Below are positions 24,830 to 24,858 of a DNA stretch of 64,000 bases, piece after piece. Under the pieces are notes generated by a model. That model saw only the letters and a list, made by a program, of their open reading frames with translations. It was not told the DNA's origin and searched no databases. Made by a program: the position numbers and the translations under genes. The stretch is from an uncultured Bacilli bacterium (lineage in GTDB: Bacteria; Bacillota_I; Bacilli_A; RF39; UBA660), in NCBI GenBank assembly GCA_934102335.1, contig CAKOSP010000001.1:110197-174196 (forward strand). The letters run 5' to 3'. How positions within the stretch are numbered: position 1 is the first letter of the stretch; each line of letters starts with the position of its first letter.

Positions 24830-24858
24830 AGCCGATAGGCTTTTTTTTTTTTTTTTTT
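24830..24858 (+). terminator. Short GC hairpin (AGCC-gata-GGCT) followed by an 18-nt poly(T) homopolymer
   Basis: Read directly: tttttttagccgataggc plus T18. Confidence 0.6.
24841..24858. repeat. T18 homopolymeric tract immediately upstream of the conserved leader of surface-protein paralog P1
   Basis: 18 consecutive T. Candidate slipped-strand (phase-variable) tract. Confidence 0.8.

Follow-up and report, generated by a model that had tools for sequence, protein, structure and literature searches.

A T18 tract that differs in length between assemblies, at a putative terminator-promoter junction upstream of a variable secreted-protein gene family in uncultured gut Bacilli

Does an uninterrupted run of 18 T's just upstream of the gene for a putative surface protein switch or tune that gene through changes in its own length, or is it the place where the remains of a terminator and the start of a promoter have grown together? 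The question was raised by an original prediction for the window (the whole stretch of DNA analysed, 64,000 nucleotides from an uncultured Bacilli bacterium), in which this T18 tract before the gene P1 and a T10 tract before the gene P2 were proposed as possible phase-variation switches, with a plain terminator U-tract as the other reading. Our preferred reading, to which we give a probability of about 0.5, is that the T18 tract would be a composite terminator-promoter junction, in which two T-runs have fused into one slippage-prone homopolymer whose drift in length is mostly tolerated. Promoter-proximal homopolymers before surface-protein genes are already known; what is new is an instance in an uncultured clade with family-wide conservation.

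The window has a GC content of about 27% and almost all of its genes lie on the + strand (Table 1). The T18 run before P1 was confirmed at exactly the positions predicted for it, and it is a clear outlier: the T-runs counted within the 64 kb comprise twenty T7, two T8, one T9, one T10 and this single T18, and the longest A-run is A9. From the base composition of the window, 7e-5 T-runs of 18 or more would be expected; the corresponding figure for runs of T10 or longer is 0.57 per window, so the T10 is not unusual. In about 420 kb (the window together with the related loci described below) all homopolymers of 10 or more are tracts of the kind found before P1, with the T10 of P2 as the sole exception, and the tails of other terminators are T6-T9 only. 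An Rfam search returned nothing at the T18 or the T10 tract.

Table 1. Features of the window around the T18 and T10 tracts and at the P4 paralogue
Feature	Position	Strand	Description	Basis
ASCH-domain gene	24412..24822	+	136 aa from ATG 24412	Pfam ASCH, E = 2.7e-7
Weak hairpin	24830..24841	+	AGCC-GATA-GGCT, 4 bp; T7 before it instead of an A-run	sequence
T18 tract	24841..24858	+	uninterrupted; C on either side	sequence
Predicted extended -10	24860..24870	+	TATG-A-TATTAT (TRTG 24860-24863, hexamer 24865-24870)	read from sequence
Alternative -10 hexamer	24860..24865	+	TATGAT	sequence
Alternative -10 hexamer	24876..24881	+	TATAAT	sequence
RBS-like block	24882..24893	+	purine-rich, AGGAATGGAAAG; in relatives GAATGGAG	in leader common to P1 and P4
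P1	24902..27103	+	733 aa (731 aa from ATG 24908); N-terminal hydrophobic signal/anchor (…ATLGATYAYFQA)	sequence
dnaJ terminator hairpin	39755..39771	+	6 bp, T6 tail	terminator scan
Promoter-like element before P2	39782..39810	+	TTGATT (39782-39787) - 17 nt - TATAAT (39805-39810), 10/12	promoter scan
P2	39846..41051	+	401 aa; N-terminal transmembrane segment; no family match	Pfam/NCBIfam/PDB searches
P4 junction	52819..52847	+	terminator T7 (52819-52825), 11 nt, TATG-A-TATCAT (52837-52847)	sequence count
P4	52885..54504	+	paralogue of P1	shared leader

The gene behind the T18 tract belongs to a very large, multicopy and mosaic family. P1 has 6737 homologues in the protein database, nearly all of them from gut metagenomes, and the related genomes, which are MAGs, bear the labels 'uncultured Bacilli', 'uncultured Tenericutes UMGS686/UMGS1410' or 'Clostridium sp. 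CAG:609'; about 10 separate loci were obtained from each of the most-sampled ones. Within one genome the N-terminal 420-460 residues of the paralogues are 85-99% identical and their C-termini differ. Searches of Pfam, NCBIfam and PDB sequences with P1, P4 and P2 gave no informative match (a weak fn3 match only). That P1 is a surface or secreted protein is concluded from its N-terminal hydrophobic segment and from the behaviour of the family, for which "variable secreted or surface protein family" seems a fair label. The leader TATGATATyATGAGTATA...GGAAATGGAAGTGCAA is common to P1 and the paralogue that starts at 52885, which bears out its predicted conservation, and in the place equivalent to the T18 tract the genes starting at 27531 and 52885 have, as had been stated, only T7 (27469-27475 and 52819-52825, respectively).

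Upstream of the tract, the stop codon of the ASCH-domain gene (24820-24822), whose protein occurs in identical form on 14 contigs, lies 8 nt ahead of a small hairpin. The T18 tract had been placed between an ASCH terminator hairpin and the P1 leader; this placement holds and a hairpin exists, but its stem has only 4 bp and it was not called in our terminator scan of the window. It folds with -5.7 kcal/mol, which is no better than shuffled sequence (z = -0.42). A stable GC stem-loop of at least 5 bp before the U-tract, as in intrinsic terminators, is absent before the T18 tract and present in several relatives, and the other hallmark of such terminators, a U-rich tract 3' of the stem and behind the end of a co-directional gene, is present, the T18 beginning within the 3' arm of the hairpin. 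As the stem is short, folds like shuffled sequence and is without the A-run partner of the relatives, the hairpin is at best a marginal intrinsic-terminator stem for the ASCH gene, and its function as a terminator is doubtful.

In the relatives, the first T's of the tract pair at many loci with an A-run upstream, and folding yields A-run/GC hairpins of -10 to -20 kcal/mol (L042, -20.2; L040, -15.3; L067, -12.2; L069, -12.1; L065 and L072, -10.8 kcal/mol); the hairpin is weak in the window and in L014, L017 and L036. A tract made up of a stem arm and a tail should change in length with the A-run; across the loci no correlation was found between the length of the A-run and that of the T-tract, and this model is weakened accordingly. 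At L014 and L036 the upstream gene (presumably one for a ribosome-recycling factor, as its translated C-terminus resembles that protein by eye, no family search having been made) has its own terminator, a hairpin with T7, 55 nt ahead of the tract. A role of the tract as the terminator tail of that gene was rejected on this ground: the tract at these two loci is not simply its tail and belongs to the cassette that precedes the family genes.

Several other features of the window were noted on both sides of the T18 locus. Upstream of the ASCH gene, the spore-coat gene cotE is split: with a B. subtilis CotE sequence as the query, the equivalent of residues 1-43 was found at 14075-14203 and that of residues 41-174 at 23942-24310 on the same strand, about 9.7 kb apart. 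The element between them (approximately 14204-23941) has five ORFs, one product of which matches UvrD helicase families, a large serine recombinase (22252-23913) adjoins the 3' piece of cotE, and the ends of the element carry the inverted sequences GGTGATAAC / GTTATCACC. The same arrangement is present in L001, L006 and L009, and the insert looks like a sporulation intervening element of the skin/SPbeta type. A perfect TTGACA-17-TATAAT promoter (27129-27157) lies in the gap between P1 and the following gene. Behind it come about 300 nt in which Rfam recognises a 'PGK RNA' motif (27330-27420; 61.7 bits), and the region closes with a 16-bp terminator (27439-27473); 27129-27473 could encode a small RNA of its own or form a cis-regulatory leader. 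Further downstream, a T-box leader (30507-30674; 97.9 bits) with a terminator at its end (30657-30685) precedes valS (30711-33239).

On its downstream side the T18 tract ends 1 nt before TATGAT/TATG-A-TATTAT, and the motif TATGnTATyAT is common to P1, P4 (52837-52847) and the paralogues in L007, L008 and L010 (by eye, not as a tool call). We infer from these sequences the P1 promoter and its transcription start. Relative to the predicted -10, the T18 tract runs from about -36 to -19 and thus takes in the U-tail as well as the -35 position and the greater part of the spacer. Between the last G/C of the hairpin and TATG there are 18 nt in P4 and in the L007/L008/L010 paralogues (T7 + 11), likewise 18 nt in the P1 alleles with T17 + C, and 19 nt in the T18 allele of the window. 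With a 17-nt spacer, the -35 position in P1, P4 and the L007-type paralogues is formed by the first six T's after the hairpin, and on the extended -10 assignment any P1 tract of at least 17 leaves this position TTTTTT and the spacer unchanged. With tracts of less than 17 the -35 position would come to lie in the GC hairpin, which fits the sharp lower bound at 17 and the longer alleles above it.

A change of promoter spacing with length had been proposed for the T18 tract. In the search for a conventional -35 upstream of it, the best hexamer is TAGGCT, with 3/6 matches to TTGACA, which at T17 sits 17 nt from TATGAT when read from the sequence, and the promoter scan called no two-hexamer promoter. 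In the relatives at least three -10-like hexamers are conserved, at 2-17 nt or more from the tract, and about 14 nt (GGTTTAAAATTAG) are present that are apparently missing from P1. Other ways of reading the region were tried and rejected, the resemblances to consensus sequences of alternative sigma factors as coincidences. For sigma-D, the hairpin GCCGATA resembles the -10, but the spacing of TAAA is wrong (12 nt) and the relatives have GTGGC/GTTGC; a sigma-H-like AGGAAT...GAAT is seen in L014 only and with the wrong spacing; and the sporulation sigma factors have consensus sequences that do not fit the tract region. Reiterative transcription from the T-run, or an attenuator in a transcribed leader, was discarded for want of a consistent upstream promoter across the loci.

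Other assemblies of the same species, with flanks 99-100% identical, were retrieved via the identical ASCH protein and P1 variants. Because an exact-flank scan of JGI metagenome contigs for the P1 junction (tract 8-38) returned nothing, the strain comparison uses ENA and Logan contigs found through the identical proteins. In seven assemblies the P1 tract measures 17, 17, 17, 17, 18, 18 and 20 (T17 in L001, L002, L004 and L006; T18 in L009 and the window; T20 in L005, a 1.3x contig), and it is the sole indel in about 18 kb of same-species alignment at 99-100% identity. Differences of +/-1 at T17-20 in Illumina assemblies, some of them at 1.3-5x, cannot be separated from technical error. The contig of L003 breaks off inside the hairpin, a single base ahead of the tract.

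Assemblies seem to break at the tract and at the repeated 5' region of P1; the contigs L003, L005 and L001 stop at the tract or within a few hundred bases of it. In L009 (1501-3516) the region ASCH-T18-P1 5' runs on into the 3' end portion of another paralogue, followed by rpsP, which is the context of that paralogue in L008 (compare 24893-27103 of the window); the N-terminal 1.2 kb is about 98% identical among the paralogue copies, and the joint is either a recombination between paralogues or an assembly chimera across the repeat.

The T10 tract fared differently. It lies at exactly 39791-39800, between the dnaJ terminator and the RBS of the gene starting at 39846, as had been predicted, and moreover inside the spacer between -35 and -10, which is the classical position for a spacing switch and the one that the tract has in the vlp system. 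An identical P2 protein is found on 13 contigs, and five assemblies of the T10 locus could be compared: the window, L061 and L063 have T10, L062 and L064 have TGT8, the total length is identical, and no indel, and hence no length variation of the vlp type, was found among the five. A switch at T10 is therefore without support, its length being constant and its run broken by a T-to-G substitution in two of the assemblies. Of the two tracts that were to be compared among strains, it is only the T18 that differs in length between assemblies (17-20).

Using the family alignment, 48 loci (275 kb) were fetched from species-representative genomes. Pure tracts are present in three of them (L014, T20; L017, T19; L036, T17), 80-140 nt upstream of the start codon of the family gene, and the T-runs in these 275 kb reach 9 and then jump to 17, 19 and 20 with none between; a second assembly of the L017 locus, L059, has T18. 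A pattern scan of JGI metagenomes (GC + T8 ... T6 + GGTTTAAAAT, with any tract of at least 14 allowed, pure or interrupted) returned seven genuine relatives, all with pure tracts (L065, T19; L066, T18; L067, T17; L068, T22; L069, T18; L070, T18; L072, T17), among which loci with the same flanks have unequal tracts (L065 T19 vs L072 T17; L068 T22 vs L070 T18). The pooled lengths (n = 18) are 17 in seven cases, 18 in six, 19 and 20 in two each and 22 in one. None of the 18 is shorter than 17; two of the three retrieval routes were without a length limit and the third allowed tracts of at least 14. The tract is thus an uninterrupted repeat of hypermutable length, T18 in the window and T17-T22 over the 18 observations, and at runs of 17 or more replication slippage is expected. 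Over about 200 T positions at 11 loci in other species there are zero substitutions, while the flanks diverge; a U-tail would not require such purity, and selection for mutability could also explain it.

Two of the related loci have peculiarities of their own. In L069 (at approximately 4440) the orthologue behind the T18 cassette has the start codon ATA vs ATG in the others (GGGGATAAAATAAGAAGAAAG); this copy is possibly a pseudogene or is translated from another start. In L018 (approximately 120-260) there is a G9 run in a GC-rich stretch unlike its AT-rich surroundings, which may be foreign DNA or a mis-binned contig end.

Alignment of the upstream regions revealed a cassette with a fixed order: the A-run/GC-core hairpin, 15-20 T-rich nt, GGTTTAAAAT, TATAGTA, AATATC-N7-GATATTG and the RBS. 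The blocks persist between genomes at a protein identity of only about 50%, which points to constraint. In the loci from the JGI scan the downstream gene has another N-terminus and the same C-terminal domain as P1, so that the 5' cassette serves a wider superfamily. An inverted repeat, AATATC-N7-GATATT, lies about 20-45 nt upstream of the RBS (in L014, L032, L033, L036, L066 and others) and overlaps the proximal promoter-like element TGTG-A-TATTGT of the cassette; a dimeric regulator might use this repeat as its operator, or it may form a small hairpin in the 5'-UTR. The T-rich part of the cassette is interrupted in some copies (L032, T9-A-T7, 17 nt; L030, T9-GC-T7, 18 nt; L042, T7-C-T3-C-T6, 18 nt; L040, T7-C-T7, 15 nt).

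On the composite reading, the 5' part of the tract would be the U-tail of the intrinsic terminator, here weak, that ends the ASCH gene, and its 3' part would fill the -35 position and the spacer of a sigma-A-type P1 promoter, which would rely on its extended -10 TATG-A-TATTAT and not on a -35 hexamer. Hairpin, 15-20 T-rich nt, promoter blocks and RBS would together form the conserved 5' cassette of a large superfamily of secreted proteins in uncultured gut Bacilli. In some copies of this cassette there are two T-runs of 6-9 with short non-T interruptions; P1 and others lack the interruptions, the 1-2 nt between the terminator tail and the promoter-upstream T-run having, on this reading, become T. 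Fusion in the interrupted copies would be expected to give lengths of 15, 17, 18 and 18, which match the observed mode of 17-18. As a homopolymer of at least 17 slips in replication, its length would then drift between 17 and 22, and since the predicted core promoter stays the same from 17 upwards, the drift is likely to be near-neutral, with fine-tuning of expression at the most. The terminator function, the neutrality of the length changes and the origin by fusion are what we infer, and the T18 tract is probably not an on/off switch.

A genuine contingency locus is the main alternative, which we regard as possible though less likely: slipped-strand mispairing would alter the tract length and thereby P1 transcription, as an on/off switch like that of vlp or a rheostat like that of sabA, in which upstream A-runs or UP-like DNA would be turned relative to the core promoter, and the population would be heterogeneous for a variable surface protein. 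What had been predicted for a switch near the promoter is supported in part: the tract is exceptional, abuts the predicted promoter with 1 nt to a -10-like element, precedes a multicopy, mosaic gene for a secreted protein and recurs in other species with its purity kept. Its length differs at every locus with at least two assemblies (17-20 at the locus of the window; 19/18/17 in L017/L059/L067; 19/17 in L065/L072; 22/18 in L068/L070), and in the same-species alignments nothing else differs by an indel. At T17, TAGGCT has the spacing of a -35 to TATGAT, the relatives have upstream A-runs as in the sabA model, and a rheostat of the sabA type works with the same geometry, a T-tract next to the core promoter and A-runs upstream (PMC4081817). 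However, TAGGCT is not a convincing -35, a 3/6 match being fairly frequent by chance; the interrupted or 'locked' copies total 15, 17, 18, 18 and about 20, so no single critical spacing is conserved; and the range of 17-22 is narrow against T5-T28 in sabA. The +/-1 differences and the extremes at 1.3-1.5x (L005, L068) may be sequencing or assembly error, and the T-tract of vpma demonstrates that position alone is insufficient (PMC2268961). The extension of this alternative to the whole cassette, in which tracts of T17-22 would be a mutable element that by slippage independently tunes or switches many members of a superfamily of >6,700 homologues in uncultured, spore-forming, Mollicutes-related gut Bacilli, with the interrupted copies as evolutionarily 'locked' expression states, strikes us as rather unlikely.

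That the differences in length are purely technical, arising from Illumina or PCR slippage and assembler consensus with one true length per species, we consider improbable. Most differences are indeed +/-1, the outliers come from contigs of very low coverage (L005, T20 at 1.3x; L068, T22 at 1.5x), and the contig of L003 is cut off right at the tract, where reads would be expected to lose phase; but contigs of higher coverage or length disagree as well (L001 and L006 with T17 vs L009 and the window with T18), L070 has T18 at 12x while L014 has T20 and L017 T19, and slippage at runs of this length is expected in any case. That the shorter homopolymers in the same alignments are without an indel also counts against a technical origin, though they are much less error-prone. 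Very improbable, in our view, is a tract that is nothing but an over-long U-tail of the ASCH terminator, with a P1 promoter indifferent to the sequence at that place. The order is right (stop codon, 8 nt, hairpin, T-run), the relatives have strong structures of A-run, hairpin and T-run, and in all paralogues a terminator T-tail stands directly before the promoter; the plain U-tract named in the original prediction is right in part, a real A-run/GC hairpin standing before it in the relatives. The tract is, on the other hand, twice as long as a usual tail, the other terminators in about 420 kb making do with T6-T9; at L014 and L036 it comes 55 nt after the hairpin and T7 with which the upstream gene already ends; its distal half is T-rich even in interrupted copies, where RNA polymerase must bind; and the hairpin in the window is too weak to be called a terminator. 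The composite junction, in which a terminator tail and a promoter-upstream run each account for part of the T's, is the reading that we retain.

If the tract length does modulate transcription, widespread uncultured Bacilli of the human gut would use stochastic surface-protein variation in the style of Mycoplasma or Helicobacter, with a bearing on how they evade immunity, resist phages and persist as strains in the gut, and metagenome assemblies of these genomes, whose contigs break at the tract, would have to be read differently; if the switch extended to the whole cassette, a phase-variation system like vlp or sabA would be present in human gut commensals. If it does not, the locus still represents a conserved terminator-promoter cassette whose T-run is unusually long and gives an example of two adjacent functional T-runs that fuse into a hypermutable homopolymer resembling a contingency locus, and it calls for caution in predicting phase variation from sequence only.

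Among known systems, the vlp genes of Mycoplasma hyorhinis have a tract of about 17-20 nt. This tract is the spacer between -35 and -10, and changes of a single nucleotide in it switch transcription on or off (Citti & Wise 1995, summarised in PMC2268961); spacer switches are also found in maa2 and vmm (PMC2268961). Like vlp, the locus studied here combines a homopolymer directly 5' of the -10 with a multigene family that encodes variable surface proteins, in a low-GC lineage, several relatives of the window being labelled 'Tenericutes' or Bacilli. Unlike vlp, the tract in the window is without a recognisable -35 upstream, in the relatives the candidate -10 hexamers are 2-17 nt or more away from it, and the proteins are not lipoproteins of the Vlp type. 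In vpma of Mycoplasma agalactiae, experiments showed that phase variation, for which the Xer1 recombinase is responsible, does not involve the T-tract immediately upstream of the -10 (PMC2268961); the two loci have in common a T-tract beside the -10 in the promoter of a surface-protein gene, and vpma, established by experiment where the window is read from its sequence, is a precedent for the reading without a switch. Rho-independent terminators are matched in that a stop codon and a hairpin precede the tract and the A-run of the relatives pairs with its first T's at -10 to -20 kcal/mol; the locus departs from them in a tail about twice the usual length, in the 4-bp stem of the window without an A-run, and in L014 and L036, where the element follows a complete terminator. 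For the T-tract of sabA in Helicobacter pylori, a rheostat, the effect of lengths from T5 to T28 on RNA polymerase binding and mRNA has been measured (Aberg et al. 2014, PMC4081817), and in the model derived for it the tract length changes the phasing of upstream A-boxes versus the core promoter (PMC4081817). In contrast to sabA, the range here is 17-22, the predicted promoter has an extended -10 with T's at -35, and a terminator hairpin comes before the tract. In both, a pure T-tract with differences in length between strains or assemblies lies by the core promoter of a surface-protein gene with A-runs further upstream, and the mechanism proposed for sabA needs no trans-acting factor, as would likewise be the case here.
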